Of a DNA stretch of 64,000 nucleotides, positions 1 through 58,730 are shown in pieces. The notes under the pieces are model-generated. The model was not told where the DNA came from. It did not search any database and saw only the letters and a list, made by a program, of their open reading frames with translations. Position 1 is the stretch's first letter; each line of letters starts with the position of its first letter. The position numbers and the translations under genes are program-made. The DNA comes from a virus (Duplodnaviria > Caudoviricetes), in the IMG/VR virus record IMGVR_UViG_3300020465_001196, one strand, 5' to 3'.

Positions 1-5
1 ATTAT

Positions 6-3000
6 CTACGACCCCTTTTTCAAATTCTGATCGGTATATGCGTTTACAATTTCGATATTATCTACTGTTGCTGTTGAATAAAATAATTCGTTTGATGCAG
101 ATACAATTTCAAATAAATCTCCAAATGTTGATTCAGCATCTGCTCCAACAATTACCACTGAACTAATCTGTGTTGATAATTGATTGTGTATGTACGCACT
201 TAACTCAGTATAGTAAAAACTTTCACCAAAGTTCCAATTGGATATATCAAAAAATGTATTAATTGCTGTAATTGTTCTTGCTTTAATTTCATTGTCTGTC
301 ATTGTTGCACCAACGGCTTTTACAACTTTAAATTTAGATTGTAATGTTGTATCTGCTGACGAACCAAATAGCAATTTAAATTTAGCTGGAGTATAAATTA
401 TTTGGTCTCCAATTGCTTTGTATGAATTTAGATTTGATGCAAACATTTCATTTAATTCTTCAACTGTTGGTTCTGTTGGAAATTCACTTACTGCTTTGTC
501 GTTTGCTGTCCAACTTAAAACATCATCATAATATTTTGATGTTAAAACTTGTAGTTCAATAATATTTGAAATACTTGGATCAATTCTTTGATCTCTTGGT
601 GCTGTGTGCTTCCATTGGAAGAACATTGGATCACTAACACCTGCTGGAGTATAATATGATCTACCAACGAATGCTTTATAAGTTATTGAACTTATAGTAG
701 ATTGGTATGCTCCGCCTGAGCCAGTTGTTGTTTGTACTGCACCATCTTTATAAAACTTGTTATCAGTTGTTAAAAATTCTAAACCATTATTAGTTAATGT
801 TGAACGTTGCATAACTGACGTTGTTAATTTGTAATAAACATAATTGTCAAAGTCTGTGTAACTTTCAAAGAACACATAGTTTTTACCATTTGATGTGTCA
901 TGAACTAATTGGTCAATTGCTAAAGGAAGATCTGGCATACCATCTTCATCTGAATCATATGTTGATACTTTTATTTTTCTATCATCAACATAACCATCTT
1001 GTTCTACAGCACTATCAACTACTGCTAGAGAAATTGTTTCACTTAATTTTCCGCCAACTGATTGTGGAGTAATTGTTACTGTTGGTGGTGACTCATAACT
1101 TGAACCACCGTCAATAATTGTAAAGTCAACTATTGCACCTTGATATACTGTTGTAATTGCTGTTGCACCAGAACCTCCTCCACCTGAAAAAGAAACTGTA
1201 GGTGCTGATGTATAATTTAATCCTGTTGTATTTAAAGCATTAATTTGTGCTCCTGCTGAATCAGTAAAGCCAGTTACTGCTCCTCCTGTTATAACATTTG
1301 GATATCTATTATAAGCACCGTTTACTGATCCTGTTAATAGATCTGATGCATTAGTTGTAAATGTTCCTGACACATTAGTTAATTGTAAATTTGTTGATCC
1401 TGAACTACTAACTTTTACTTTTCCTTTTGCACCTGAGTTTGCTTGAGTTACTATTTCATCTTTAGTTGCTGTTCCAATTGCTCCGCTGGCTGTTATTGTT
1501 AAATCAATAGTTGCTAAAGCTGACGCTCCAGTTCCTTCTTCAATTTTACTGTTTACATCTGCCAACACATCAATTTTATCTTGTACACTTAACCCTGTTG
1601 CACTATCTAATGTTTTATAATCTTTTACATAAAAGAATCTAACATCGTCTGTTGATTGGAATATATAATCTAATCCTCTTGATGTAAATGTAAATTTAGC
1701 ATTTGTGTTCGAACCTTTTTCTGTAAACTCTGATTTTATTAACCAACTTGAGTCATTGTTTGTACCAGCAGTTCCACTACCAATTGAATTGTTAATTACA
1801 TCAAATTCACTTGTAGTATCAATTTTGTCAGCATCAATAATATACCATGCTTCTTCTTTTGATGATGAATCAAAATAATTATAACCAATACCAAACTTAC
1901 TTAATATTGCTGTCGATTCGCTTAACTTAGATTTAATTGCAGTTTTTTCTGCTGAAGTTAATGTAGTTCTTAAATTTGGTATAATGGCTCTAGCTCTATA
2001 TCCTGCCGGAATAGATTCACTTAATTGGATTGGTCCTGTTGTTAAGTTTGCAGGATCACCATTTGCTGTAACACCTTTAACTGTTGCCCAAATTATTTTT
2101 GTTGGGTTTGCATAGTCATCAACAAATTCAATTCTTGAACCTTTACGTATTAAACCATGTTTATCAGTTGTTGGTGCTTTATGAACCTTTTTCAAATTTG
2201 TAGAATTTTTTGCAGTTGATTCTGATTCGCTCGGTAACGATTGTGTAATATAACCGTAGTAACTAGACGTTGCAACTGGCATAGGTCTCCAATATACAAT
2301 ATCACTACCACCTGTTAAGAATATAAATTTTGCAGGATAGCCTGAAATTGGTACTGCCTCAATTGCTTTTTTGTAAGGATCAAAATAAAAGTTTTGTGTT
2401 TGAATTAATTGAATCATTTTTTCAATTTCTAAAACCATATTATCATATGAACTTGAATCAATTACATTTTCAACTTTTTCTGCGTTGTTTGGTTCTTTAT
2501 AAAGAATTCCATCTTCTCCAATGCAGTTTACATTTGCAACTGTACCAGTTGGATCTTGTACGTCAATAAATCTAGAATGACCTGCGTGTGTTTTGTTTAT
2601 TGCTTTTAATTTTTGTATACCAGAAACTTTTGTAATTGGAAATACATTATAATCTTCTGCATTAATCATTCTGTCTTGAGTGTAATACCCTTGACTTGCA
2701 TTTGTTCTAACTTCTTCAATTGATTCTCTTACTGATGAATTGTTTATGCTATATTCTAAACTAAATGTTAAAGATAAATCATAAGTTTGATCAGCTGAAT
2801 TAGAATAACTAAATCCAATTGCTTTGTTTTTAATATCCGATGGTGAAATTGTTTCGCCTTTTGATTGACTTGCTCTATACCATATTCTATATAAACCAAC
2901 TGGTATATCACCAAACTGTCCATCTGAGAATCTAATATCTATTTGATCATCTGTTTTTGATTGTACATCAAATATTGTTCTTGTACCTAATGCTAAACTA

Positions 3001-13263: not shown

Positions 13264-14272
13264 AAATAATAAAAAATATCTTGTTTATGATTTTGATTGT
13301 GGCCGAGAAAAAGGTTTTGGTGACCTGTTGCAAACAAAAGACTTATGGATAAAATCAAAAGATAAACCATACGTTGTTATTTCAAATGCATATGAAGGTG
13401 AAATACATCACAAACAAGCTGATCAATTTTTAGAAAGACTTCATGCTGAACTACGAGGTTATGAACATGATAAAATTGTATTAGTAATGGCAGATGCTAA
13501 TTTAGAAAAAAATTACAAACGTTGGTATAAAAATTACAAAGAGCCAAGAGTAATTGGGCATTGTGTATACTATCCATATACATTATTAAAAAGATCTATC
13601 GAAAGTTTTAACAAATATAAAATTAATAAAAAGTATATGACTAGGAAGCCAAAGTATTTTATTTGTATGAATGGTGCCGCAAAGCCTCACAGATTTCATA
13701 TGGTAGAAACATTATATTCAAACGACTGGCATCACAAAGGTCATATTACATATCTAAACAGATATGGTGAAAACACAAAACATATGGCTAATGAAAACTT
13801 TCAAGGACAAACATTAAAATTAGACTTTGATGCTAAAACTATTGACGAAGGTGATAATCAAGAAATACTTCCACCAGAATATAGAGAAGCAATATTTGAT
13901 GTTGTAACTGAAAGTATTGTTAGTGATAGTAGTGTATTCATAACTGAAAAAACTTGGAAACCAATATTACAAAAAGTTCCTTTTTTACCATTAGGTTCAA
14001 AAAAAATGTGTAAACATTTAGAAGAATTTTTTGGAATTAAATTGTATAACAATCTATTCAATTATAGTTTTGATTATATTGATTATCCAAATAGACTACA
14101 CAGAATCAAAGAAGATAACTTAAGAAGGTTAATCAATACTCCTTTAGCGGACCTTAACGATATAATTAATTCAGATAAAATGCAAAAACAATTATCATAC
14201 AATCAAACGCAATTAATTAATTTTAAAATTCCAATGCTAATAGATGCTATTGATAAAGAGGTCAATGGATAA
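13244..14272 (+). CDS. GT10-like glycosyltransferase paralog
   Basis: FICMNGAAKPHR and FDVVTES...FITEKTWKPI...VPF. Confidence 0.45.
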   Translation: MPNIISKNNKKYLVYDFDCGREKGFGDLLQTKDLWIKSKDKPYVVISNAYEGEIHHKQADQFLERLHAELRGYEHDKIVLVMADANLEKNYKRWYKNYKEPRVIGHCVYYPYTLLKRSIESFNKYKINKKYMTRKPKYFICMNGAAKPHRFHMVETLYSNDWHHKGHITYLNRYGENTKHMANENFQGQTLKLDFDAKTIDEGDNQEILPPEYREAIFDVVTESIVSDSSVFITEKTWKPILQKVPFLPLGSKKMCKHLEEFFGIKLYNNLFNYSFDYIDYPNRLHRIKEDNLRRLINTPLADLNDIINSDKMQKQLSYNQTQLINFKIPMLIDAIDKEVNG

Positions 14273-15494
14273 AGATACTGCATTAAAAAAATCAAAACGT
14301 TTCTGTATGTTACCTTGGACACATTTACACTCATGGCCAGATGGCAGAGTGTTACCATGTTGTATGGCCCCAATGGACGAAATACTTGGTAACTTAAAAG
14401 ATCAATCATTTGAAGATATTTGGAATTCAGATAAGTTAAAGAAAATGCGTGTAGCAATGTTAAAAGATAAACCAACAAAAGAATGCACTCGTTGTTATTC
14501 TATGGAATCAAGTGGATTGAATACAACAAGAACTTGGGCTAATGAAACATTTGAAAATCATTTTGATAAAGTAGGAACTACACAAGAAGATGGTACCGTT
14601 GATAAAATTAACTTACCATATATTGATTTTAGATTTTCAAATTTATGTAACTTTAAATGTAGAACTTGTGGACCAGATTTATCATCAAGCTGGTACGAAG
14701 ATAATATTAAACTGTATGGTCCATTAAAACATCCAAAAATTATAAGGCCATATAAAGATGAAGAAACATTTTGGCAAAAAGTCGAACCATACATGGACGG
14801 ATTAGAAGAAATATATTTTGCAGGTGGTGAACCACTTATCATGGAAGAACATTATAGAATTCTTAAAAAACTTGATGAACGTAAAATGTATCACGTAAGA
14901 TTAAAATACAACACAAACTTTTCACAAATGACATTTAAAAAATTAGATGTTATGGAAATATGGAATCGTTTTGAATCTGTTAAAATAGGTGCTTCGTTAG
15001 ATGGCATGGGTAAACGTGGAGAATACTTACGTAAAGGACAATCATGGGAACAAGTTGAAGAAAATAGAAAACGTATGTTTGATATTTGTCCAGATGTATA
15101 TGTGTTCCTTGCAACTTGTTTAAATGTATATAATAGTTTCCATGTACCAGACTTTCATCATGAATGGATACAAAAAGGTTGGATTGACGCTGTTGGTGGC
15201 AGTTTGATTAATCCGTTGTTTGTACCAGAAGAACTTTCTATACAAATACTCCCAATGGAAATGAAAAAACGATTAGAAGAAAGATATGTGCAAGAACAAG
15301 AATGGTTTGACAAGTATACGCAAAATAAAGAAAAACGTTATGATAAACTAATTCATTTTATGTATGAAAAAGATTCATCACATCTTATTCCAAAGTTTTG
15401 GGAAAGAACAAATATGGTCGATAAGTTACGTAACGAAGATGTTATTTCATTGTTCCCAGAATTGATGGACCTAAAAAATCATCAACCAGTTTAG
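14265..15494 (+). CDS. Radical SAM protein with N-terminal SPASM/twitch-like Cys cluster
   Basis: CMLPW...PCC...CTRC, then CNFKCRTC (CX3CX2C), FAGGEP, YNTN; start 14265 after GAGG. Confidence 0.85.
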   Translation: MDKDTALKKSKRFCMLPWTHLHSWPDGRVLPCCMAPMDEILGNLKDQSFEDIWNSDKLKKMRVAMLKDKPTKECTRCYSMESSGLNTTRTWANETFENHFDKVGTTQEDGTVDKINLPYIDFRFSNLCNFKCRTCGPDLSSSWYEDNIKLYGPLKHPKIIRPYKDEETFWQKVEPYMDGLEEIYFAGGEPLIMEEHYRILKKLDERKMYHVRLKYNTNFSQMTFKKLDVMEIWNRFESVKIGASLDGMGKRGEYLRKGQSWEQVEENRKRMFDICPDVYVFLATCLNVYNSFHVPDFHHEWIQKGWIDAVGGSLINPLFVPEELSIQILPMEMKKRLEERYVQEQEWFDKYTQNKEKRYDKLIHFMYEKDSSHLIPKFWERTNMVDKLRNEDVISLFPELMDLKNHQPV

Positions 15495-16669: not shown

Positions 16670-16701
16670 TTTATCCTTTTTGTGCTATGTTAAATATAGT
16701 T

Positions 16702-17883
16702 ATGCACACACCAAAATCATTTTGTATACTACCATGGATATCATTAGAGTCCACAGCCGCAGGGTGGGTTAAACCTTGCTGTATGTATAATAATAACATG
16801 ACTGATGAAAACAATCAACCATTCAATTTACAAAAAAATACATTTAATGATGCTTGGAATAGTGATTATTATAGAAACCTAAGACAAGAATTCTTAGATG
16901 GTAAAATGCCAAAAGGTTGTACAAAATGTTGGAGTGAAGAAGCAAGTGGTAAAGTATCTAAACGTATTAGAGATAATCAAAAATACAAACATCATATTAC
17001 TGAAGAAATAATACAGGAACCTAAATTAAAATATTTAGATCTAAAACTAGGAAACATTTGTAATTTAAAATGTCGTATATGTGGAACACATTCAAGTTCA
17101 AAATGGATAGCAGAACAAAAGCACTATGACAAGCAAGACAATCACGAAGAAGAACACACACGTCATGGCTGGCCTGAAACTAACAAAAAGTTTTGGGAAG
17201 AACTTGAAGAACTGTTGCCAACATTAGAATACATCGACTTTACTGGTGGTGAACCATTTATGATTAAAGAACAATTTGAACTATTAAAGTTTTGTGTTGA
17301 AAAGGGTTATGCAAAAGATATTGGCATACACTATAACACAAATGGAACACAATTACCAAATGATGCATTACAAAACATATGGCCGCACTTTAAATCAGTT
17401 GACGTGCAGTTTTCAATTGATGGAATAGAAAATCATTTTGAATATCAAAGACATCCTGCTAAATGGAAAAATGCTTTACACGTTATAAATGAATTTAAGA
17501 ATAAACAAAGCAAAAAGTTTACTGTTGGTATATGTCATACAATTAACATCTTTAACGTGCTATACATACCCAAATTTTTAACATGGGCAAAAGAATTTGG
17601 TATAAGTGTATACTTGAACAGTTTACATTATCCATCGCATTATAATATTAAGTGTTTACCAAATGAGGCTAAAAGAAACATTACTAATAGGTTACAAGAA
17701 AACAATAACAAAGACATACAAACGTTCATTGATTATATGAATCAAGATGATAATGGATATCATGATTGGATGAAATTTGTACATTGGACTATGCGTGTTG
17801 ATAAATTTAGAAGCGAAAACTTTGAACAAGTTTTTCCAGAACTAGCAGAAGCAACTGAATATAAATATTATAAAAGGAAATAA
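16702..17883 (+). CDS. Radical SAM protein with N-terminal SPASM/twitch-like Cys cluster
   Basis: CILPW...PCC...CTKC, CNLKCRIC, FTGGEP, YNTNG; start 16702 chosen (ORF track 16687). Confidence 0.85.
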   Translation: MHTPKSFCILPWISLESTAAGWVKPCCMYNNNMTDENNQPFNLQKNTFNDAWNSDYYRNLRQEFLDGKMPKGCTKCWSEEASGKVSKRIRDNQKYKHHITEEIIQEPKLKYLDLKLGNICNLKCRICGTHSSSKWIAEQKHYDKQDNHEEEHTRHGWPETNKKFWEELEELLPTLEYIDFTGGEPFMIKEQFELLKFCVEKGYAKDIGIHYNTNGTQLPNDALQNIWPHFKSVDVQFSIDGIENHFEYQRHPAKWKNALHVINEFKNKQSKKFTVGICHTINIFNVLYIPKFLTWAKEFGISVYLNSLHYPSHYNIKCLPNEAKRNITNRLQENNNKDIQTFIDYMNQDDNGYHDWMKFVHWTMRVDKFRSENFEQVFPELAEATEYKYYKRK

Positions 17884-35867: not shown

Positions 35868-36076
35868 TTGAAACAGTTGTAGCCTTACTAATGTTTATTA
35901 ATAATGAAATTAAAGAACATAGAATACAAGATAGTATGGGTGTATGTTTAAGAGGTAAACGTACAGCAGAAAGACAGTATTCAGAAGGCGTAAAATACCA
36001 ATGCATCAAATCTAAAGCTGAACTAGAATTAAACATTGATGGTTCTAAAACAATTAAAGCATTAATATTAGAATAA
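35864..36076 (+). CDS. Small Cys-containing protein of a type recalled from SAR11 phages
   Basis: [10 protein letters not shown]...[16 protein letters not shown]. Confidence 0.6.
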
Positions 36077-36137
36077 TTATCTATTTGTTTTACGCATAGC
36101 AGATATGCAGATAAATACTAGCTTACCAAAGGATATT

Positions 36138-36368
36138 ATGAAAAAAGATATACACCCTGACTATCATGAAATCACAGTTAAAAGAACTGATGGCTCTACG
36201 TTTAAAACTAAATCAACTTGGGGCAAAAAGGGTGATACCATGAATCTAGAAACTGATCCAACAGACCATCCAGCATGGAATCCTGGTAAGAAAGCAAGGA
36301 TGAAAGAAAAGGGTCGTGTTGCAAGTTTTCAATCTAGATATGGTAATATATTTTCTAAAAAGGATTAG
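36138..36368 (+). CDS. rpmE: 50S ribosomal protein L31 (bL31), Zn-free form
   Basis: [14 protein letters not shown]...[10 protein letters not shown]...DPTDHPAW...[11 protein letters not shown]; no Cys; start 36138 after AAGGA. Confidence 0.9.
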
Positions 36369-36370
36369 TT

Positions 36371-36565
36371 ATGAGAGATACAAAAGGCTTAGAAGCATAT
36401 ACTAAAAATCTTAATAAGAAAAACAAAGAAAAGTTACTTAATAAAGTATTACGTAGAGAAGTAGAAACTGGTGCTAATGGAACACAACAATACGTAATTA
36501 AAAAAGGCACAAACAAAGGCAAAGTAGCCAAAGGCTTTAGTGGTAACAATGGATCAACAAACTAA
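36371..36565 (+). CDS. Small basic protein
   Basis: REVETGANGTQQYVIKKGTNKGK. Confidence 0.6.
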   Translation: MRDTKGLEAYTKNLNKKNKEKLLNKVLRREVETGANGTQQYVIKKGTNKGKVAKGFSGNNGSTN

Positions 36566-36782
36566 ACTAGCTTCTATAATTTGGATTATTGTAGTGGTGT
36601 CTGCATTCTTTATTCTTACTGGATGTAGTGGAATGTCAGTATCAGGTAATTGCTGTGGTTCAAGCAATATTAAAATTGAAAAAACATGGGTGTTACCTAC
36701 ACCTACTACGTATGAAGAAGAACGTACAGTCCACGACAAATACCCAGTTTTAGAAGTAATAGTGGAAAATCTAGCTAAATAG
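36549..36782 (+). CDS. Lipoprotein
   Basis: Hydrophobic N-terminus with LTGC lipobox. Confidence 0.6.
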   Translation: MDQQTKLASIIWIIVVVSAFFILTGCSGMSVSGNCCGSSNIKIEKTWVLPTPTTYEEERTVHDKYPVLEVIVENLAK

Positions 36783-36786
36783 CATT

Positions 36787-36975
36787 ATGAAAAACTTTTT
36801 TAAAAATATTACAGACTCGGCTAAAAAAGCAGGTTCTAAGATAACTGATGGTGCTAAAAACATTACATCTAAAACAGTAGATGGTGTTAAAGGCGTTGGC
36901 GATAAAGCCAAAAGATCAATGGATCTTGCCAAAGGTAAAGTTACTAAACTGACTCAGTTTAAACCTAAAAAATAA
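36787..36975 (+). CDS. Small amphipathic-helix repeat protein
   Basis: KNITDSAKK/KITDGAKN/KTVDGVKG quasi-repeats. Confidence 0.55.
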   Translation: MKNFFKNITDSAKKAGSKITDGAKNITSKTVDGVKGVGDKAKRSMDLAKGKVTKLTQFKPKK

Positions 36976-37215
36976 TTATTTTTTAGCAAAACTTTCTTTT
37001 GTTATCCCAGCTTTAGCGAATGCTTCAGCAAATGCATTATTCAAAGGTGCATTATTAGATTCATTTGATTTAAAACTTTTTTGATTGTGAGAAGGCTTTT
37101 TTCTTTTTTGAGGTTTAGATTTCTTCTTAGGTAAAGGCTCAATTGAGTGAGTGATTTTCTTTACTGACTTTTTTTGAGGTTCACCTATGGTGTATGTTTG
37201 TTTCTTTTTAGCCAT
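36976..37215 (-). CDS. Lys-rich small protein
   Basis: Late promoter and AAGGA SD upstream. Confidence 0.55.
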   Translation of the reverse strand: MAKKKQTYTIGEPQKKSVKKITHSIEPLPKKKSKPQKRKKPSHNQKSFKSNESNNAPLNNAFAEAFAKAGITKESFAKK

Positions 37216-37264
37216 ATATGTTTTAGGTTCCTTAACTGTATTTAACCATTATCATTGAAATGAA

Positions 37265-37730
37265 GCATATAATATGCAAAAACCTTGGGCTTATGTCCTA
37301 AGACTGCCAAGGTACTATATGCAAGAAGGCCGTTTTAAGTACTTTAGTACACCTTCGGTGTAGACCAAATGTCTACGAAATGGAAGTATCTAAGACTTCC
37401 TATGGAAGCTACTGTGGCTTCCTAAAATGAGAAGCTTCAATGCTTCTCTAAATGAGAACAACTAAGGTTCTCTAAAACGGTGCAATTTTTAAAGACATTT
37501 TTAAACTTTATAAGTCGTCTAGCACCTCTATAAACATTATAGGTTATTATTGTTTAGTGTAAGAATTTATAAGCATTTTTAAAGTATTATACTAGCTAAC
37601 TTACTAATAATAAACCTAACTAAATGAGCATCTGTGGCTCTCTTTTCCTAGTAGGTGTAAGTAATTATCTCTTACATACCTCCATTAAAATATTTGATAA
37701 TGGATATCGTTACACTTTATCAAATATTTT
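37265..37730. repeat. Tandem hairpin (inverted repeat) array
   Basis: At least 11 stems, including four consecutive related units at 37382-37472. Confidence 0.8.
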
Positions 37731-37799
37731 TTAGAGGTTAAGTTAGCGATAATTCACATGACATTTACATTAAATATTATAGCAGAGAGAGGTTGTATC

Positions 37800-38402
37800 G
37801 TGGATAAAATTATTTTAACAGACATAGACGGTGTTGTTTTTGATTGGCATACAGCATTCGTTAAATGGATGGAACTTCAAGGTTATTCGTCAACAGGTGT
37901 GATGCATCATGATGCAGAAATACACAACGAGTTTGGAATTGCTTTTCAAGAAGGTCTTATTAAAAGAGAAGAGTTCAATTCTTCTATGGCGTGTTCTATT
38001 TTAGAACCATTACGCGGCGCCGAGATTTGGATTCCTAAACTTAAAGAAGAAGGTTTTAAATTTATTGCTATTACTTCTTTAAGTGATAAACCAATCGCTC
38101 AATACTATCGTTATTTAAATTTAGAAGATTACTTTGATGTTGAAACTTTTTTAGATGTTAGATGTTTACCTGCAGGTGCAGATAAAACAGAAGCACTAGA
38201 AGAATTCAAAGATAGTGCTTTACTTTACATTGATGATAGAACATTAAATATTGAAATAGCATTAAAACAAAATCTTAATGCTATACTAATGAAACATCCT
38301 TATAACATTCAATACTCAAACCCAAAAGTTAAATTAGTTAGCACTTGGGAAGATATTTACAATTACATTCAAAAAGTATACAACGTAAAACCAAATAAAT
38401 AA
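37800..38402 (+). CDS. HAD-family 5'-nucleotidase-like phosphatase
   Basis: ILTDIDGVVFDW, AITS, YIDDR; GTG start after GAGG (ORF track 37758). Confidence 0.75.
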   Translation: MDKIILTDIDGVVFDWHTAFVKWMELQGYSSTGVMHHDAEIHNEFGIAFQEGLIKREEFNSSMACSILEPLRGAEIWIPKLKEEGFKFIAITSLSDKPIAQYYRYLNLEDYFDVETFLDVRCLPAGADKTEALEEFKDSALLYIDDRTLNIEIALKQNLNAILMKHPYNIQYSNPKVKLVSTWEDIYNYIQKVYNVKPNK

Positions 38403-38406
38403 AAAT

Positions 38407-39015
38407 ATGTTACACAAACATATTTTTCACGTTCCAGAATTAGATCTTAATGATCAACAAAGATCAATCATTAAAGAAAGATATTATAAGTTCAAAGAAG
38501 CCAACCCAGGTGTTGGCTTCGAGAGCGTCGAGAGAGAAGAAGGTGGAAATAATCCAGGAAACATAGCAACAACAAGTTCAGATGGTGAACCTGTGTTTAA
38601 GTATATTACAAGTGGTATAGATTTATTAGAAGGTGTATATACTGACAAACAAATACAGCAAATTAAAAGTTTATGTTCTCCATTAGACAATATGAATGCT
38701 GATGAGCCTTTTGATTTTTTAGAAACACATGGCAAAGTATTAAAACATATTGATGATATGCGATATGGTGTTATTACAGTACCTATTATAGAACTAGGAC
38801 ATACATTAGAGTTTTATGCTAGTGATGATGCTTCTGTAACTGATGATGTTGTTGAAACAATGAAGTATGATAATAAAACTTACATATTCAATCCTAAAAT
38901 ACCGCATGGAGTAAGAACATCAGATCATATGAGATTGTTTTGGCAAGGTAGCATTTTTAATAAAAACTTTGAACAAATAAAACAAGAATATGAACAAGGT
39001 AAATTGTTTAGATAA
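38407..39015 (+). CDS. 2OG-Fe(II) oxygenase-like protein
   Basis: KHID...PHGV...R pattern; FHVPELDL N-terminus shared with 51101. Confidence 0.5.
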   Translation: MLHKHIFHVPELDLNDQQRSIIKERYYKFKEANPGVGFESVEREEGGNNPGNIATTSSDGEPVFKYITSGIDLLEGVYTDKQIQQIKSLCSPLDNMNADEPFDFLETHGKVLKHIDDMRYGVITVPIIELGHTLEFYASDDASVTDDVVETMKYDNKTYIFNPKIPHGVRTSDHMRLFWQGSIFNKNFEQIKQEYEQGKLFR

Positions 39016-39023
39016 GTATTAAT

Positions 39024-39818
39024 ATGGCACATTCAAAAATAGGATTATATGGAGACAGTTTTGTTGAAGTATGGCCGGAAGAAAAAAAGAAATATAAAGA
39101 AGAAGAACATTATTCATTAACACCGTGGCCAAAAATAGTTGCGGACAAATTTAATTTAGAAATTGTTCATTCAGGTAAAGGTGGAACATCATATTGGGAT
39201 ATTCCATTACAACAGTTTTCATTAGATAATGTTCCTGATATATTAATATTTTCTTGGACCTCTAGTGCTAGACTTTATAACAAACAAGGAATCCAATTAC
39301 ATCCTAACCCAGGTAAAATTTGGTGGCAAGACGGTGATGTTAAAGATAGTTATGTAGATGCAAGTAAACAATATTTCAAATACATTCATGATACTGAAAA
39401 AGAAATAGCAGAGTACAAGGCTTGTTTATATTGGTTTGATGAAACTATATTAAGTCAAATACCATCAGATAGAAAAATAATTCACTTGTGGTCATTTGGA
39501 CATGATAACACAGACACTAAATTAGGTGGAACATATCATCCTGGCAATTTAACTTATTTGCACAATTGGAAAAATGGTTGCGAAATAAGACCAAGTTGTA
39601 TGAGTATTGCTTTGATGGATGGTGCAGGGTTTGATGATGTTGATCCATTTGAAAATCATATGAATACACAAACTAAACATAATCTTATGGCAGACTTTAT
39701 AATGCATTCTTTAATTGATACTAATGTTAACGGAGGATATGATAGAGAAGCATTAAATGACTATTCAGAAAACGTAATTAAAAATCACATTTATTCTACA
39801 ATGCCCCCTTCTAAATAA
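39024..39818 (+). CDS. SGNH/GDSL-like protein
   Basis: LYGDSFV, GKGGTS, ENHMN. Confidence 0.55.
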   Translation: MAHSKIGLYGDSFVEVWPEEKKKYKEEEHYSLTPWPKIVADKFNLEIVHSGKGGTSYWDIPLQQFSLDNVPDILIFSWTSSARLYNKQGIQLHPNPGKIWWQDGDVKDSYVDASKQYFKYIHDTEKEIAEYKACLYWFDETILSQIPSDRKIIHLWSFGHDNTDTKLGGTYHPGNLTYLHNWKNGCEIRPSCMSIALMDGAGFDDVDPFENHMNTQTKHNLMADFIMHSLIDTNVNGGYDREALNDYSENVIKNHIYSTMPPSK

Positions 39819-39851
39819 CAAATAAATATACTATAACAGGAGTCAATTAAA

Positions 39852-40580
39852 ATGAAGTGGACAACTTTAATACAAACAAAATACTATAATATAGATAAAA
39901 CTGAATCAATTGATCTTATTATACCTAGAACTGTTAAAGATGATCAACAAATTGCTGGTAGGCAGGTTGATACATTAGGTATATGGTGTTCAGGTGGTGC
40001 TGACTCAAGTGCTTTATTATATTTGCTTTGTAAAGAAATAAAAAAGAATAATTTAAGTATAAAAGTACAACCAATGACAGTTAGAAGACAACGTCCATGG
40101 AACCCTGTAAAAGCAACTCATGTTATTAATAAAATTACTGAAATTTGTGAAGCACAAGAAATTGTGTTACCTCATTTAATTTACTATCCTGACTTAAAAG
40201 ATGAGCATCAAACTGAATGGCAAGAATTTCAAGATAGAAATAAAGAAAATGAAGAAACAGGAGTGTGGGATGTTCTATATGATGGTATAACATCTAACCC
40301 ACCAGAAGGGGCAATGCCTTATGACACAGATCAAAAAGATAGACGTGATCCAAATGTAGACCATGAATTGATTACTCCAGATGGATGTTCTCATAGACCA
40401 TTTTTTAATACAAATAAAAAATTTATTGCTGACATTTATAAGCAAGAAAATTTAATGAGTAATTTATTTCCTTTAACTTGGTCATGTGAAGGAACGTTTG
40501 AACAAACAAATGGTTACCTAACACCTTGTGAAAACTGTTGGTGGTGTCATGAAAGATATTGGGCATTCAATAGATATTAA
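39852..40580 (+). CDS. QueC-like PP-loop ATPase
   Basis: CSGGADS; TWSCEG...PCENCWWCHER Zn-site-like motif. Confidence 0.65.
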   Translation: MKWTTLIQTKYYNIDKTESIDLIIPRTVKDDQQIAGRQVDTLGIWCSGGADSSALLYLLCKEIKKNNLSIKVQPMTVRRQRPWNPVKATHVINKITEICEAQEIVLPHLIYYPDLKDEHQTEWQEFQDRNKENEETGVWDVLYDGITSNPPEGAMPYDTDQKDRRDPNVDHELITPDGCSHRPFFNTNKKFIADIYKQENLMSNLFPLTWSCEGTFEQTNGYLTPCENCWWCHERYWAFNRY

Positions 40581-41905
40581 TGTCAGAAATTATTGCAATC
40601 GATAACGATATACAAAATCCTTATTCATTTGAAGTAACATGGGATTTAGGTTTACGATGTAATTTTGATTGTACTTACTGTCCTTCACACAGACATAACA
40701 ACACATCACCTCATGCAAGTTTAGAAACATTAATTAAAACAAGTAAGTTTGTTTTTGATTATAAAAAATTATTACAATCGTATATGACATATTCTCGTAA
40801 ATGGAATATTGGATTTACAGGAGGTGAACCAACTGCCAATCCAAACTTTTTAGCAATGTGTGAATACATACATGATCAAGGTGACCAAGATGTAGTTGTT
40901 GATGTAACAACAAATGGAGCCATAGGAGAAAAATATTGTAAAAAATTAATTGATAATGTTGATAGTATTACTGTAAGTTATCACAGCGAAGTAGATCAAA
41001 AAACAAAAGATAGAGTTGTAGATAGAATTTATCAATTAAAAGAATCAAATATTAGACATAAAGTTAATTTAATGTTTCATGCTAAAGAAGAATACTTTAA
41101 TGAATGTATTGATTTAGTTGGAAAATTTACTAGAGATAATGTAAAGTTTGTACCAAGAATTATTGGAGAAAGTTATGATAATGACAAGTACAATCATAGA
41201 TATACTCCAGAACAACATAAATGGTTTAGAGACTTTTGGGCAATTAGAAACAAAAAAGAAAACAATCAAAAGCAACCTAAAAAGATAGATGAAAATAATG
41301 ATGCCGAATATGAGTATACAGATGATCAAAAGAAAGTACAAGAAAAAAGATTAGCACAAAAGGCAAAAGATATTGCAGTAGGTGAAAGAATTAAAACCAA
41401 AGACCTATCAAAACCTATAAAAGATTTACTACCAAAAAAACAAGAAGGTAGAAAAAGTTTAGGTAGACCTTGTTGTGGGCAAAGAACATTTTATACATTA
41501 ACAGAAGAACATTATACACAAAATAATAAAAAATTAGATACAGATAAATGGAATAAAAGTGTATTTGCTTGTTCAACAGAATATAAAGATTGGTCTTGTT
41601 TAATTAATTGGAATTGGTTACATATTGAACAAGAATATGATAATATACTACATCATCAAACTTGTCGTGCAAATTTTGGTGGGGAACGTGGGCCTATTGG
41701 TAAGATATCTGAAAGTGAAATAGTTTTAGAAAGATTAGAAAAACAATTAGCAACAGGTAAAATGCCTGTAATAACTTGCCCTAATAAAGTTTGCGGTTGT
41801 GGTTTATGTGTACAAAAATCAAAACATCATGATATGACAGAAGCAATGTTTAATAAAGCAGTAAAAGGTTTAACTCCTGTTATTGGAGCAAAACTAAATG
41901 GATAA
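40580..41905 (+). CDS. Radical SAM protein with C-terminal Cys cluster
   Basis: CNFDCTYC, FTGGEPT, TTNG, CPNKVCGCGLC. Confidence 0.85.
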   Translation: MSEIIAIDNDIQNPYSFEVTWDLGLRCNFDCTYCPSHRHNNTSPHASLETLIKTSKFVFDYKKLLQSYMTYSRKWNIGFTGGEPTANPNFLAMCEYIHDQGDQDVVVDVTTNGAIGEKYCKKLIDNVDSITVSYHSEVDQKTKDRVVDRIYQLKESNIRHKVNLMFHAKEEYFNECIDLVGKFTRDNVKFVPRIIGESYDNDKYNHRYTPEQHKWFRDFWAIRNKKENNQKQPKKIDENNDAEYEYTDDQKKVQEKRLAQKAKDIAVGERIKTKDLSKPIKDLLPKKQEGRKSLGRPCCGQRTFYTLTEEHYTQNNKKLDTDKWNKSVFACSTEYKDWSCLINWNWLHIEQEYDNILHHQTCRANFGGERGPIGKISESEIVLERLEKQLATGKMPVITCPNKVCGCGLCVQKSKHHDMTEAMFNKAVKGLTPVIGAKLNG

Positions 41906-43184
41906 AGAAGTAAAAAACTTTAATGAAAAGTATGGTAACACCTTCTGTATAAAACCTTTTTCAGAAGTAGCATCTACACCACTTGGTGCAATTAAGTTGT
42001 GCTGTTACTCTGGAACAATTGATCCTAAAGAAGAATATTTCAGCAAAGATAAAACTATCAAACAAGTGTTTAACAACAACGCAGGATTGATACAAGCAAG
42101 AAAAGATTTACTTGCTGGTAAAAAAATAAAACAATGTCAAGGTTGTTGGAAAGACGAAGAAGCTGGAAACAAATCAATGAGGATAAATCACACACAATAT
42201 TACGATGAGATGGATCCAGAGTTTGTGCAACAAGCAAAACAACAAGGCAAAGCAGAAGTTAAAAGTATAGACATAAAATTTGGTAACAAATGCAATTATG
42301 CCTGCGTTATGTGTGCACCAGACAACAGCAGTTTGTGGGGAAAAGAAATACAAAAAAATCCAATAGACGTAGATTTATATCAAGGTGGCTTTAATAATTT
42401 TGTTCAATTAGTTGATTACCCAGAACACAAATATGATGAGCTTTTAGAAATATCTAAAAGTATTAGAAGAGTGAAAAGCACTGGTGGTGAACCAATGTTG
42501 CTAGATGGATTCAAAGGTTACATAAAAAAAATAGTAGACAAAGGATATGCCAAATACATGAACTTTAAAACTGTAACAAATGGTACAGTTGATTGTTCTG
42601 AATTACTACCTTACATGAATGAGTTCAAAAGGTTTGAAATGGATTGGAGTGTTGATGGCACCGGCGAAGTTTATAATTATATTAGGTGGCCTGGCAACTT
42701 TAATAGGATGAAAAGAATACACGAAAAATTAGCATCAGAAATTATCAACAACAATTATAAAAATATTGAAATTACTATGCACCCAACTATACAAGTTTTT
42801 AATCTACATAATATTCCTGAAATAATACAATATGCAAAAGATCTACAGGTTGTTAATTTTGTAGATTTTGGATACATTTTTGATGAGCCAAGTTATTTAA
42901 ACACTGGTGTATTTCCTGATAAAATGCTAGAAGATATTATTCAAGAAAACAATAAAAAAGTTGGTAAAATAGAAACATCAAACAATTTTAATCATTCATA
43001 TGATAATCTTGTGTCGACTGTACGTAGAGATCAAAAATTATTTAATAAAAAGTACAACAAAAAAGAATTGTTTGATAAAACTAAAAGAATAGCAAAATGG
43101 TTTGATAAAAGTAGGAAACTAGATATTCACAATCACATATCAACATATAAAGAGCTTGAAAATTACTATCTACACCTACAATAA
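41898..43184 (+). CDS. Radical SAM protein with N-terminal SPASM/twitch-like Cys cluster
   Basis: CIKPF...LCC...CQGC, CNYACVMC, TGGEP. Confidence 0.85.
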   Translation: MDKEVKNFNEKYGNTFCIKPFSEVASTPLGAIKLCCYSGTIDPKEEYFSKDKTIKQVFNNNAGLIQARKDLLAGKKIKQCQGCWKDEEAGNKSMRINHTQYYDEMDPEFVQQAKQQGKAEVKSIDIKFGNKCNYACVMCAPDNSSLWGKEIQKNPIDVDLYQGGFNNFVQLVDYPEHKYDELLEISKSIRRVKSTGGEPMLLDGFKGYIKKIVDKGYAKYMNFKTVTNGTVDCSELLPYMNEFKRFEMDWSVDGTGEVYNYIRWPGNFNRMKRIHEKLASEIINNNYKNIEITMHPTIQVFNLHNIPEIIQYAKDLQVVNFVDFGYIFDEPSYLNTGVFPDKMLEDIIQENNKKVGKIETSNNFNHSYDNLVSTVRRDQKLFNKKYNKKELFDKTKRIAKWFDKSRKLDIHNHISTYKELENYYLHLQ

Positions 43185-43481: not shown

Positions 43482-43555
43482 TGGTAGCACTACCGGGAAT
43501 TGAACCTGGGTCTTAACCTCCTGAAAGTTACGTTCTACCATTGAACTATAGTGCA
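43482..43555 (-). tRNA. Atypical tRNA, anticodon CAG (nominally Leu), short variable loop
   Basis: Cloverleaf TGCACTA / GTTC D-arm / TAACT-TTCAGGA-GGTTA / AGAC / CCAGG-TTCAATT-CCCGG / TAGTGCT-A-CCA. Confidence 0.7.
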
Positions 43556-43686
43556 TACAGTATTTAAAGGTATAGGCACCTATGTTAAAACTATAGAATT
43601 CTATATTAAATATAGACTTTTAAAAATATAAATGTTATAATAAACTGTAGATTAGATACACACAAACATACACAAAGGAGGATATT

Positions 43687-51100: not shown

Positions 51101-51664
51101 ATGAAAAAGCCTTATTTCCATGTACCAGAATTAGATTTAACTGAAGAACAAAGATCTAAACTATTCAATAAATTTAAATCAAAAAGAAATACTGAATTGT
51201 TTAGACTTAAATTTGAGAAACGTGAAAAACTAATTTATAACTTATCAACATATTACGCAAATATTAATTTTGTATCTGAATTCTTTGCTGATAACTTACT
51301 TAATGATATTAAAACTATTTCATCAGAATTTGATCCAAATGATAAATGGGGAAAGACTTCATCATATGAGTTTATGCAAACTACTGGACCTATTGAAAAG
51401 CATTGTGATAAGGTACGTCATGCTACAATAATAATTCCACTATATGATCCAGAATGTAATAAACTTCAATGGTGGAATAAAAAAGAAACAAAAATTATAG
51501 ATACTTTAGATTATAAATTTAAAACATGGATTCTAAATGTAAAATGTCCTCACAGTATGTTGACTGCTTCTAAAACAAGAATAAGTTTTCAAGCAAGTAT
51601 ATATGGATATACGTTTGATGAAATAAAAGAAATGTATGACTCAGGTAAAATATTTAAAGATTAA
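51101..51664 (+). CDS. 2OG-Fe(II) oxygenase-like protein
   Basis: KHCD...PHSM...RISFQ. Confidence 0.5.
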   Translation: MKKPYFHVPELDLTEEQRSKLFNKFKSKRNTELFRLKFEKREKLIYNLSTYYANINFVSEFFADNLLNDIKTISSEFDPNDKWGKTSSYEFMQTTGPIEKHCDKVRHATIIIPLYDPECNKLQWWNKKETKIIDTLDYKFKTWILNVKCPHSMLTASKTRISFQASIYGYTFDEIKEMYDSGKIFKD

Positions 51665-52821
51665 TGAAACGTCCATTCATACAATTGTGGATTAACTACT
51701 TGCAAACTAGTTTCTCTAACCGTATCTAATTTATGTGTAAAATCTCTATAGTCTTTAAGTGCTTCTTGGTTATAGTAATCGTTATTTAAAAATTTTATTA
51801 ATGGCTCACGTATAATTTCTGTTTTAAGATTACTAACTATTTTAATACATTCATTTATATGTTCTTTGCTTAACACTTTTCTTATATCTGTATAGTGTGG
51901 GCCGCGTACAAATGCATTGTAAGGAGTTAAGTTATTATCAAGTAACCATTCTTCAGTTTCTTCTAATTTATTAACATTGTATACACTATGAGCCATATGC
52001 AATCTTAATTGTATATTTGGATATTCTTTAGATAACTCTTTCCATTTTTTAATATTAGTGTTGTATTGTTCCCAATTTAATCCACTACGTATATACTCTG
52101 CTAAACTGCCAATACTTTCTCCACTAATTCTTAAATCAACAATATCAAATTTAGTTAAGTGATCTATTATAGATTGTTTTGGAAATATACTTGCGTTAGT
52201 ATTAAATTGTATAACTGTTTCATCTGTTTTAGCTCTTTCAGTTATAATTTGTAAGAACTCATCTAGGTGCCTAGTCATAAATGGCTCTCCACCAAACACT
52301 CCAACTTCTCTTAATTTAGATAAATCTAACTTTTTTAAATCATTTATAATTTCTTTTTCACGTACAAATGTTTGTTGAGGTGTTGTTTGAATTGCTAGAT
52401 GATCATAGTCAAATGGTATGTTTCTTTTTTGCATTTCTTCAATGTCTTTGTTCCACTCTGTACTACTATGTGGACCACAATACAAACATTTAAAATTACA
52501 AAATGCACTAAAGGCTACTTGTAAAAATGCAACTTGCCCAGGATTTATTTTGTGTTTGTTAATTGTTTTTACTGAATTAATTCTTGGGCCATATGTTGGA
52601 CTTATTTTTTCTTCTTGAGTACACTTATAACAAATATTGTTTTTAAAATTTTCATAAAGATACTCTGGATCTTTCATTGCTCCAATTTGTTCTTCAATAG
52701 TATTGTGTGTATATTTTTTATCAGGAAATGTTTTTATTAAACAACAAGGCTTAAACTTGCCATCCATTGCTGTTGGTTCAATAAAAATTCCGTTTCTAAG
52801 ATATCCACAATCAGTTTTCAT
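51661..52821 (-). CDS. Radical SAM protein
   Basis: PCC...CYKC, CNFKCLYC, VFGGEP, FNTN. Confidence 0.85.
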   Translation of the reverse strand: MKTDCGYLRNGIFIEPTAMDGKFKPCCLIKTFPDKKYTHNTIEEQIGAMKDPEYLYENFKNNICYKCTQEEKISPTYGPRINSVKTINKHKINPGQVAFLQVAFSAFCNFKCLYCGPHSSTEWNKDIEEMQKRNIPFDYDHLAIQTTPQQTFVREKEIINDLKKLDLSKLREVGVFGGEPFMTRHLDEFLQIITERAKTDETVIQFNTNASIFPKQSIIDHLTKFDIVDLRISGESIGSLAEYIRSGLNWEQYNTNIKKWKELSKEYPNIQLRLHMAHSVYNVNKLEETEEWLLDNNLTPYNAFVRGPHYTDIRKVLSKEHINECIKIVSNLKTEIIREPLIKFLNNDYYNQEALKDYRDFTHKLDTVRETSLQVVNPQLYEWTFH

Positions 52822-57416: not shown

Positions 57417-58730
57417 TCAATGGTCATATTTCTTTAATACATTATATAATTCTGGAACTTGCTTTTCAAAACTTTGGCCTCTTATTTGATCAAGTATCTT
57501 TGTATGTTCAAAAAACATTGGAAGATACTTTTTCTCTTCATTTGGCCTATCTGCTTCTAAATATTTTAAAACATTATTAACACCCATTTTTAAATTATAG
57601 TGTAGTGAGTCTTTATTACGTTCTCTACACTTATCTAATTTATTCCATGCAAGTTCTCTAATTTCTTTTGGTAAACAGGATATAGCATGATACTCTGGTT
57701 CGTGTACAGGATTTAAATTAGCCAAGTCCATATCATTTTCAAGATGATACTCTATTAAGTTTGGAATATTTAAAATATTTAAAACTTGATATGTAGGATC
57801 ACTATTAACTTTGAATCTATCTGATCTATATTCTTCTAATATTTTTCTATTTTCATGTAAAGTTTCCCATACACCTTTCCATCTTATATATTCATAAACT
57901 GATCCAGTTCCATCCATACTAATTTTTACTTCTACTTTTTTAAAGCCGTCTAACTTCTCCATGTATTTTCTATTGATTTGCATTCCATTAGTTGTAAACT
58001 TAAGAATCATATTTTTATCAATACCTTCACGTTTACAAAAATCAAGTATCTCACTAAAATATTTGTTTACTGTTGGTTCACCACCACTAACTGTAATAGC
58101 ATCTAGTTGTGGTAATAGCTCTTCTATTTGTCTTCTAAACTCTGGATCTTTCCAATAGTCTTTTACTTCTTTAACTCTTGGTAGTGGTTTAATTATATTT
58201 TTATGAAACAGTTCTTTTCCTTTTAATTTATCATTACTAAATTTATCAATATGCTCTAGTGCTTCTTCTTCAATAATAGAACTATTCCATGGATTACACA
58301 TACGACAAGCCAAATTACATAAATTTGCTAATTGAAAATCTATCCATCTTATTTTTGGTTTTTTAATAACTTGTTCTTTAAATTGTTCAACTGTTAAGTT
58401 TTCTAAATTTGCACTTGGAACTTTTGCTTGATCAAGAATTCTTTTTGACATCATACCTTTAGATTCATCTATCCAGCAACGTCTACAACCTGGATCTTTT
58501 TTACCATTTAATAAATTTTGCCTTAGTTTTTCAAGTCCTGAAGATTCCCAATACCCATTTGTAAACCAACCAATGTCGTTTATTCTATGGTGCTCACTAA
58601 TACAGCAAGGATCTGCTTCTCCGCCTGATCCTATATAAGATGTTGTAAATGGAAAATGACAAAAGGTTTTTGAGATTTTATCTTGCCATTTTAAATATTG
58701 CAAATCCTGATTATCTTCTTGTTCACTCAT
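57417..58730 (-). CDS. Radical SAM protein with N-terminal SPASM/twitch-like Cys cluster
   Basis: CHFPF...PCC...CRRC, CNLACRMC, SGGEPT, TTNG. Confidence 0.85.
   Translation of the reverse strand: MSEQEDNQDLQYLKWQDKISKTFCHFPFTTSYIGSGGEADPCCISEHHRINDIGWFTNGYWESSGLEKLRQNLLNGKKDPGCRRCWIDESKGMMSKRILDQAKVPSANLENLTVEQFKEQVIKKPKIRWIDFQLANLCNLACRMCNPWNSSIIEEEALEHIDKFSNDKLKGKELFHKNIIKPLPRVKEVKDYWKDPEFRRQIEELLPQLDAITVSGGEPTVNKYFSEILDFCKREGIDKNMILKFTTNGMQINRKYMEKLDGFKKVEVKISMDGTGSVYEYIRWKGVWETLHENRKILEEYRSDRFKVNSDPTYQVLNILNIPNLIEYHLENDMDLANLNPVHEPEYHAISCLPKEIRELAWNKLDKCRERNKDSLHYNLKMGVNNVLKYLEADRPNEEKKYLPMFFEHTKILDQIRGQSFEKQVPELYNVLKKYDH

Follow-up and report, generated by a model that had tools for sequence, protein, structure and literature searches.

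What is an array of tandem hairpins doing in a gap without genes between two divergent genes of a marine phage? The question is raised by IMG/VR record IMGVR_UViG_3300020465_001196, from an uncultured marine phage of low G+C content (~31%), of which a stretch of 64,000 nucleotides (nt), here called the window, was analysed. The gap (37216-37799) lies between an open reading frame (ORF) for a protein of 79 amino acids (aa) and a gene for a HAD-like protein. We put the probability at roughly 0.7 that an expressed, structured non-coding RNA includes the array as a variable module; the evidence suggests, more specifically, that it is a copy-number-variable module in a single-copy gene for a stable, highly structured RNA of ~340-380 nt of uncultured giant marine phages. 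Such phages are abundant but uncultured, and to our knowledge almost nothing is known of their non-coding RNAs. An earlier reading of this DNA from its letters alone (the original prediction) had described the hairpins but missed that the array is one variable module of a larger conserved RNA, which also exists without any unit.

Expression was assessed with contigs from marine metatranscriptomes, which give neither strand nor exact ends. Sampled words of a 585-nt query were present at fractions of 0.31-0.50 in six marine metatranscriptome runs and of 0.73-1.00 in DNA runs, and four RNA runs from four studies (X15, X17, X18, and X20) were compared with positions 36500-38500. The X15 run yielded a single contig of 341 nt (37311-37651; depth 86), 100% identical to the window and without loose ends. 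Two contigs each came from X17 (37324-37474 and 37488-37644), X18 (37353-37504 and 37489-37639), and X20 (37332-37482 and 37488-37638), and their breaks near 37488 match a known strain variant, GGTGCGTG, as in the related loci L018 and L023. Contig cover of this phage is confined to 37311-37651 of the interval compared, lack of cover on the flanks not being evidence in itself; the few short pieces found there have loose ends and come from other sequences. A discrete piece is present in the RNA libraries of all four studies and, because the single 341-nt contig spans both the array and its flanks, the array is part of one long RNA and not, it seems, a DNA cruciform or a set of unit-length products. 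Of the processed multi-hairpin RNA that had been among the options offered earlier, the RNA therefore stands and the unit-length products are not supported.

The hairpin units, the hairpins flanking them, and the 14-bp inverted repeat were all found where they had been described (Table 1). The array proper consists of four hairpins (H1-H4; 37382-37472) with stems of 6-7 bp and loops of 6-8 nt, joined by A/U-rich linkers that read AAAU on the plus strand and AUUU on the minus strand. Across 30 array units from 10 related loci, all 180 of 180 stem pairs are Watson-Crick pairs, and the loops occur in 11 variants, including changes of 1 nt in length. RNAalifold, given nine distinct sequences, returned 99 pairs, and compensatory double changes were seen in 13. 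In the 3' domain, 95.7% of alignment cells are paired, against at most 48% when partners were slid by 1-3 columns, and 11 pairs carry double changes, against 0-2 in the slid controls; this covariation was reached by none of 500 shuffles. The 5' half behaves alike (96.4% of cells paired, against at most 43% when slid).

Individual helices make the same point. H1 has an orthologous double change (GGAAGT/ACTTCC to GGAAGA/TCTTCC), and the outer stem of hairpin A, whose arms are CCTTGG (37283-88) and CCAAGG (37307-12), runs through the series CCTTGG/CCAAGG, CCTCGG/CCGAGG, CCCCGG/CCGGGG, and CCCCGC/GCGGGG. The three small overlapping hairpins have compensatory variants (GTGC/GCAC with GGAGA/TCTCC in L027; TGTAGA/TCTACA in L031). 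Covariation in the region is strongest not in the array but in the long hairpin at 37479-37526, with up to three pair types per position and 100% of cells paired. Long-range helices with arms up to 75 nt apart covary too, and the one that closes the scaffold domain does so between subfamilies (TAGGTT/AACCTA as against CTGGGT/ACCCAG in L039). At least 10 helices are retained through compensatory changes, so that the locus has the conserved secondary structure, kept by compensatory changes, that marks a structured non-coding RNA gene. To judge from these alignments, it is the structure of the hairpins, not their sequence, that is selected. The original prediction had said as much from differences among the units; relatives now provide the compensatory changes, and the slid controls support the pairing. 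Structure is kept and RNA contigs are present, the two points on whose absence that prediction was to fall.

The surrounding DNA is conserved as a whole. The whole 540-nt gap between the two genes is kept in ~15 metagenomic or viral loci, at a level that matches the flanking coding DNA, and it aligns end to end among homologous loci. Because the RNA-covered part is 87-93% identical to the window, compared with 85-92% for the HAD gene and 76-90% for the basic 79-aa ORF, the DNA of the RNA region is under purifying selection at least as strong as that on the flanking genes.

Table 1. Positions in the window of the structural parts of the RNA and of the features beside it.
Feature	Position	Strand	Sequence or make-up	Remark
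RNA core	37311-37651	minus (inferred)		covered by metatranscriptome contigs
Hairpin A	37278-37313	minus (probable)	CCTTGG/CCAAGG outer stem, inner stem of 3-4 bp, A5 run	
Three small hairpins	37341-37376	minus (probable)	GTAC-ttta-GTAC (37341-52); TACACC-ttc-GGTGTA (37348-62); GTAGAC-caaat-GTCTAC (37360-76)	3-nt overlaps
H1	37382-37400	minus (probable)	GGAAGT-atctaag-ACTTCC	perfect stem
H2	37404-37422	minus (probable)	GGAAGC-tactgtg-GCTTCC	perfect stem
H3	37429-37448	minus (probable)	GAGAAGC-ttcaat-GCTTCTC	perfect stem
H4	37454-37472	minus (probable)	GAGAAC-aactaag-GTTCTC	perfect stem
Long hairpin	37479-37526	minus (probable)	GGTGC/GCACC, inner AGAC/GTCT	covaries
Scaffold domain	37541-37617	minus (probable)	long-range helix AGGTTATTATT with AATAATAAACCT	encloses GCATTTTTAAA box and a small hairpin
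Fifth hairpin	37626-37640	minus (probable)	GAGC-atctgtg-GCTC	weak
Invariant box	37647-37669	minus (probable)	CCTAGTAGGTGTAAGTAATTATC	minus strand holds GATAATTA (37669 to 37662)
AT-rich inverted repeat	37687-37700/37717-37730, to 37736		14 bp perfect, 16-nt spacer, then T-run (T6-T8)	
79-aa ORF, lysine-rich	36976-37215	minus	AAGGAA ribosome-binding site and TTAAATAC late-type box	downstream of hairpin A
HAD-superfamily phosphatase-like gene	37753-38402	plus	TTCACA-16-TATTAT and GAGAGAGG before the start	probable start GTG 37800

How much of this RNA is fixed, and how much is free to vary? Homologous gaps were drawn from IMG/VR (L001), from a metagenome scan (L017-L019), and from contigs with homologues of the 79-aa ORF (L020-L034); among these loci the order of HAD gene, gap, and basic ORF is constant. 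Among complete genomes, the nearest relative has 328 kb and terminal repeats (L001/G001, from IMG/VR). R1, a covariance model built on the 3' domain, located a copy in each of G001, G002, and G003—a single RNA copy per record—and further copies in L035-L038; it detects the scaffold domain in all subfamilies, and a more divergent copy in L039 was recognised by eye. Run on 100 loci (L044-L143) out of at least 120 IMG/VR loci with the TTTAWAAGCMTTTTTAAA box, R1 accepted just the known G002 and G003 copies, besides a coding-region false positive (L050), and a scan with the 17-mer GTAGACCAAATGTCTAC gave one chance match within a coding region (L007). Among cultured phages (50,697 records) there was no DNA match for the window region or for the divergent L039 and L037 versions.

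Divergent copies have a scaffold in common: hairpin A; an AU palindrome box, UUUAAA(A)GNCNUUUUUAAA; a small covarying hairpin (AGTA-tta-TACT at 37583-37593 in the window); the long-range helix; and a GATAAYTA box. In the window, the long hairpin encloses the AU palindrome (TTTAAA-gacatt-TTTAAA, 37488-37505). The GATAAYTA box occurs in every subfamily (window, L019, L001, L037, L002, L039, and G003). The number of units, by contrast, runs from 0 to 4, in line with the earlier proposal that homologues be aligned for variation in unit number and for covariation of the stems. L035 and L037 have no unit, L002 has one (AAAUG-AAGAC-cuaaa-GUCUU-CUAAGG), L023 and L027 have two, L001, L019, L020, L024, L031, and L032 have three, and the window and L018 have four. 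H2 (GGAAGC) and H4 (GAGAAC) are present in all window-type relatives; H1 (GGAAGW) is absent in three of them and H3 (GAGAAGC) is present in three, a distribution that gives the units positional identity. Since the unit number ranges from 0 to 4 while the scaffold stays, the array is best read as a lineage-specific, expandable add-on to an older scaffold that requires no fixed number of units. The fifth hairpin stands apart from this series: at -4.7 kcal/mol it folds no better than shuffled sequence, other hairpins take its place in L001, L027, and L031, and it is deleted in L019, L020, and L024. Direct-repeat families in the region are just 11-22 nt long and 73-87% alike, and stems differ from unit to unit, unlike the near-identical repeats of ~28-37 nt with spacers of a CRISPR array.

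Pairing beyond the individual hairpins was also noticed. An invariant box, AAGAAGGCC (37324-37331), and the 3' arm of H2, GGCUUCCU (37416-37423), show a complementarity that includes G-U pairs on the plus strand, and the 3' arm of one array unit can pair with the 5' arm of the next. The array may switch between alternative folds.

Which strand encodes the RNA bears on how the array is to be understood. We think it probable that the minus strand is read, because this orientation provides both a canonical terminator (a hairpin followed by U5-U8) and the invariant GATAAYTA box. Hairpin A, in minus orientation, runs into U5 in the window and L001 and into U8 in G003/L042 and L039, with folding energies of -10.8 to -19.6 kcal/mol, and together with its U-run is the probable intrinsic terminator of a minus-strand RNA; we know of no role for an A5-A8 tract before a hairpin on the plus strand. 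At the other end, GATAATTA is a candidate -10-type promoter element of the RNA. The GATAAYTA box lies 11-18 nt beyond the right end of the RNA contig, and a start 6-8 nt downstream of it would fall ~3-5 nt beyond that end. The arrangement of neighbours is in keeping with this: minus-orientation genes end at or run into the right edge of the RNA in L035, L002, and G003, and in the window, L035, and L039 the gene that comes after hairpin A is in minus orientation and has a late-type box of its own. The candidate for a plus-strand terminator at the right end of the contig, which is the fifth hairpin, is not better than shuffled sequence.

Several observations weigh against reading the minus strand, or fail to favour it. 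Folding energies of single sequences are equal on both strands and do not discriminate between them; the plus-strand consensus permits more G-U pairs (62 cells, as against 26); two subfamilies carry a plus-strand TAnnAT hexamer (TATAAT, TATTAT, TAAAAT, or TAGAAT) upstream of hairpin A; and the window type and the L002 type have a plus-oriented hairpin with a T-run on the right of the RNA. Hairpin A, which a terminated minus-strand RNA should include, is missing from the RNA contigs, whose cover ends at 37311, although a bias of random-primed libraries against a 3'-terminal hairpin, or else processing or trimming, could account for its absence. In several members the sixth position of the GATAAYTA box is C, and no consensus -35 element was found with the box.

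Other tests of strand and signals were neutral. Base skew and the composition of unpaired bases did not decide the strand, the GATAAYTA box is not enriched elsewhere in the window, and no terminator-like site was called in 36700-38000. The recurrent promoter-like motifs TATWATATGCAA, ACATTAAATATTATA, and GATAAYTANNTAY occur at chance level window-wide, and no early sigma-70-type promoter is present at the RNA gene. The weak minus-strand promoter that had been pointed out earlier (TTTATT-N17-TATAAT, near 37585-37615) lies within the part covered by RNA contigs, and L019-type relatives have lost its -35 part by deletion, so it can be set aside. The array was also considered as a row of intrinsic terminators and rejected as such, the units having no direct U-run: UAAA comes after them on the plus strand and AUUUA on the minus strand, and a U5-U8 tail is confined to hairpin A in minus orientation.

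Read from the minus strand, transcription would start a few bases past the GATAAYTA box (near 37652-37658) and end at hairpin A and its U-run (near 37279), placing the array in the 3' half of the RNA, with CUUAGAU-type loops and AUUU(U)A linkers. Each hairpin might be an equivalent docking site for the same protein, of host or phage, so that function would scale with the number of units (valency) and the RNA would act as a sponge, decoy, or scaffold for that protein. We advance this proposal tentatively and at less than even odds. It is drawn from the anatomy of the array: pairing in the stems is flawless although each position has a stem sequence of its own, common motifs recur in the loops (plus strand, AWCUAAG or ACUGUG; minus strand, CUUAGWU or CACAGU) and in the linkers, and whole units come and go over an unchanged scaffold; position-specific stems would limit misfolding and slippage of register between neighbours. 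Counting against it, no protein is tied to the RNA across subfamilies and no partner was identified, and neither the loop motif nor its complement is enriched in the window (15 matches, 24 expected). Copy numbers of zero to four on a fixed scaffold amount to a natural dosage series for testing what the hairpins bind, and, should the partner be a protein with which the host defends itself or handles RNA, the RNA would be a new tool of takeover or counter-defence that is made of RNA. Even if the partner is no such protein, the phage RNA family is new and well supported, and an alignment and a model are defined for its annotation.

Does the RNA belong to a family already described? Rfam 15 covariance scans of 36000-39000 and 37260-37760, at E-values up to 10, gave chance matches only (mir-95, 24 bits against a threshold of 67.5, and sroE, 14 bits against 51), with no match to CsrB/Rsm, ToxI, GOLLD, ROOL, IMES, 6S, transfer-messenger RNA (tmRNA), or ribozymes. 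ARAGORN found no transfer RNA (tRNA) or tmRNA in 37200-37800, the four tRNAs of the window all lying elsewhere. A published catalogue drawn from IMG/VR (PMC10690425), whose 10,006 candidate viral structured RNAs are 29-151 nt long, could contain fragments of the RNA.

In function the RNA seems most like the CsrB/Rsm sponges or the pseudo-ToxI repeats, yet by this comparison it fails the defining features of both. With CsrB, RsmY, and RsmZ it shares many short hairpins and short single-stranded linkers; those abundant non-coding RNAs end in an intrinsic terminator (a probable one here), the number of repeat sites differs between their homologues as well, and they work by valency. They are, however, carried by bacteria rather than phages and have GGA in loops and linkers, whereas the GGA of the present RNA is hidden within the H1 and H2 stems, H3 and H4 having none. 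No exposed GGA was found on testing for a CsrA/RsmA sponge, the loops being AWCUAAG, ACUGUG, or UUCAAU. GOLLD and ROOL are likewise encoded by phages or prophages, multi-helical, strongly covarying, of unknown function, and accumulated to high levels, but at ~600-800 nt they are longer than the ~340-380 nt here, there is no Rfam match to them, and the tandem, copy-number-variable hairpin module is particular to the present RNA. The lambda nut boxB and HK022 put hairpins, which a protein or RNA polymerase reads, are likewise short hairpins of phage RNA whose loops are conserved; they are single sites in mRNAs beside boxA, whereas the array has tandem hairpins with different loops in a separate stable RNA that contains no boxA-like element.

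A phage precedent is the tandem repeat of phage phiTE, in which a transcribed, intergenic non-coding RNA repeat likewise shifts in copy number between close relatives and counters a host protein by mimicry (PMC3475682). ToxI units, after cleavage, are 36-nt pseudoknots, unlike the plain hairpins of 22-25 nt within a larger conserved scaffold described here, for which there is no evidence of unit cleavage, no sequence match, and no known cognate toxin. Type III antitoxin RNAs consist of tandem direct repeats of ~34-45 nt, each a pseudoknot, beside or matching the gene of a toxin endoribonuclease; family searches reported no ToxN/AbiQ-like family among the neighbours (79-aa ORF and HAD-like gene). 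As to ToxI-like processing, a 341-nt RNA contig spans the array, but contigs from communities without the toxin cannot exclude it. A decoy array for host proteins, one of the original options, is a possibility. In its strict form, the units would mimic the hairpin substrate or partner of a host defence or RNA-processing protein, such as an abortive-infection endoribonuclease, and phage lineages would gain or lose units (0 to 4) as host defences change, an arms race thereby tuning the valency of the decoy. We regard this form as unlikely; if true, it would add to the pseudo-ToxI principle a second natural example, of different structure and in abundant ocean phages.

Could the loops instead be read by other RNAs? 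They (CUUAGAU/AUCUAAG type) would then be repeated seed or kissing-loop sites for phage or host mRNAs, and the AU-rich linkers and terminator tail would serve an RNA chaperone. Chaperone-dependent small RNAs do have hairpins, AU-rich linkers, and a terminator with a U-tail, which is the architecture found here, and the loops are the best-conserved single-stranded parts. The same loops nevertheless tolerate many substitutions and 1-nt changes in length, the deficit of matches in the window (15 against 24 expected) applies to their complement as well, and no target was found; such a regulator is doubtful.

A decoy could also be encoded on the plus strand. ToxN cuts at AAAU, and this tetranucleotide precedes 25 of the 30 units; an RNA starting from TATAAT at 37268, with hairpin A first, might be processed into AAAU-separated units that act as a decoy or antitoxin mimic for a host endoribonuclease. 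The TAnnAT hexamer kept in two subfamilies, the AT-rich hairpin with T6-T8 downstream, and the greater tolerance of G-U pairs would all suit this orientation, as would the variable copy number. The model would be pseudo-ToxI: the repeats of phiTE neutralise ToxN, and in escape mutants the 36-nt intergenic repeat expands from 1.5 to 4.5-5.5 copies (PMC3475682). AAAU is, however, expected to be frequent in DNA of 30% G+C, the units are simple hairpins of 22-25 nt rather than 36-nt pseudoknots and have no Rfam ToxI match, and the RNA contig runs unbroken across the array. G003 and L039, moreover, have A8 in place of a -10 hexamer before hairpin A, which fits only a U8 tail on the minus strand. 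We hold this version to be decidedly unlikely.

It is quite improbable that the element is a cis-acting part of neighbouring transcripts—a leader, 3' trailer, or insulator for the HAD/radical-SAM operon or for the 79-aa gene. In its favour, the RNA lies within 0-9 kb of a HAD-like gene in all subfamilies, terminator-like hairpins face outward on both sides, and a minus-orientation gene leads directly into the RNA in L035, L002, and G003. Its position relative to the HAD gene nonetheless varies: directly upstream in the window and L037, behind a QueC-like gene in L035 and L002, 2 kb downstream on the other strand in L039, and 9 kb off in G003. The promoter-like boxes of both flanking genes sit outside the RNA, and the array lies outside both flanking mRNAs, as the original prediction held.

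An element acting as DNA, finally, is very improbable. It might be an origin with iteron-like palindromes beside an AT-rich unwinding region, a set of primosome or single-stranded DNA hairpins, or a row of cruciforms, with transcription incidental or priming. The lambda origin has palindromic units followed by AT-rich DNA, and four palindromic units of 19-20 bp, spaced at 22-25 bp and followed by AT-rich DNA, resemble that layout; L037 also has three direct AAAAAATGGCATCATTT repeats beside the element. Half-sites bound by protein do not, however, need symmetric double changes that preserve pairing, helices with arms up to 75 nt apart covary as well, and the element is found in the RNA libraries of four studies. 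Members without any unit keep the scaffold. The cruciform or single-stranded DNA origin that had been proposed is not supported on two further counts: stems of 6 bp with loops of 7 nt are too short for cruciform extrusion, and the minimum of cumulative GC skew in the window is near 32-34 kb rather than at the array.

Other readings were tried and rejected. An iteron-type origin would conserve the sequence of its binding sites, not their pairing, whereas the stem sequences here differ between units and between orthologues with pairing always kept. A unit read as a mini-ORF (ATG, six codons, and TAA) would have its 'codons' altered by the compensatory stem changes, 8-nt loops would shift its frame, and L027 has ACG rather than ATG. 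Nor do the units mimic anticodon stem-loops of the phage's own tRNAs, whose anticodon arms do not resemble them.

Of the two flanking genes, the 79-aa ORF has homologues at 50-84% identity that always adjoin the RNA in the window-type lineage. It evolves fast, with that range of identity across loci whose adjoining RNA is ~90% identical, and its tie to the RNA is limited to the window-type lineage. It had no match to a Pfam or PHROG family, and neither tblastn in cultured phages nor a pattern search in IMG/VR gave a match to it. The basic protein could be a candidate RNA-binding partner. On the other side, the GTG start of the HAD-like gene at 37800 is kept among relatives. It opens an operon-like row on the plus strand (37800-43184) that encodes the HAD-like phosphatase, two unknown proteins, a PP-loop/QueC-like protein, and two radical-SAM proteins; five further ORFs of the window match radical-SAM (14244-15494, 16687-17883, 51661-52821, 57417-58730). 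These HAD, QueC-like, and radical-SAM genes suggest a pathway that modifies nucleotides, or RNA or DNA, in an unusual way.

Between the RNA gene and the HAD promoter, the AT-rich inverted repeat (37687-37736) folds at -15 kcal/mol (z -4.5). With a run of T7-T8 it is present in most window-type relatives but not in L001, and it could serve to terminate plus-strand transcription, to provide an AT-rich element upstream of a promoter, or to bind a protein, for instance as an operator for the divergent promoters. Identity to the window is mosaic: that of L031 is 97.9% in the left 95 nt of the gap and 78% in the adjoining basic ORF. Mosaic identity between the window, L031, and L001 points to frequent recombination around the RNA gene, as far as sequence comparison can tell.

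Some minor observations concern related loci and other sites. Contig L033 ends (1-30, reverse strand end) in CTGTCTCTTATACACATCT, a Nextera adapter remnant and thus an assembly artefact, not biology. In L037-type phages, three direct repeats of ~20 nt (AAAAAATGGCATCATTT-like; 1350-1415 in L037) lie just left of the RNA, preceded by a strong minus-oriented terminator (AAGGGGAT...ATCCCCTT and U7); the repeats are absent from the window. At 43545-43570 of the window (minus strand), a tRNA(CAG) gene has TTTAAATAC upstream, the same late-type box as GTTAAATAC of the 79-aa ORF, and in the same comparison of late-type boxes the 274-aa gene of L035 has CATAAATAC.

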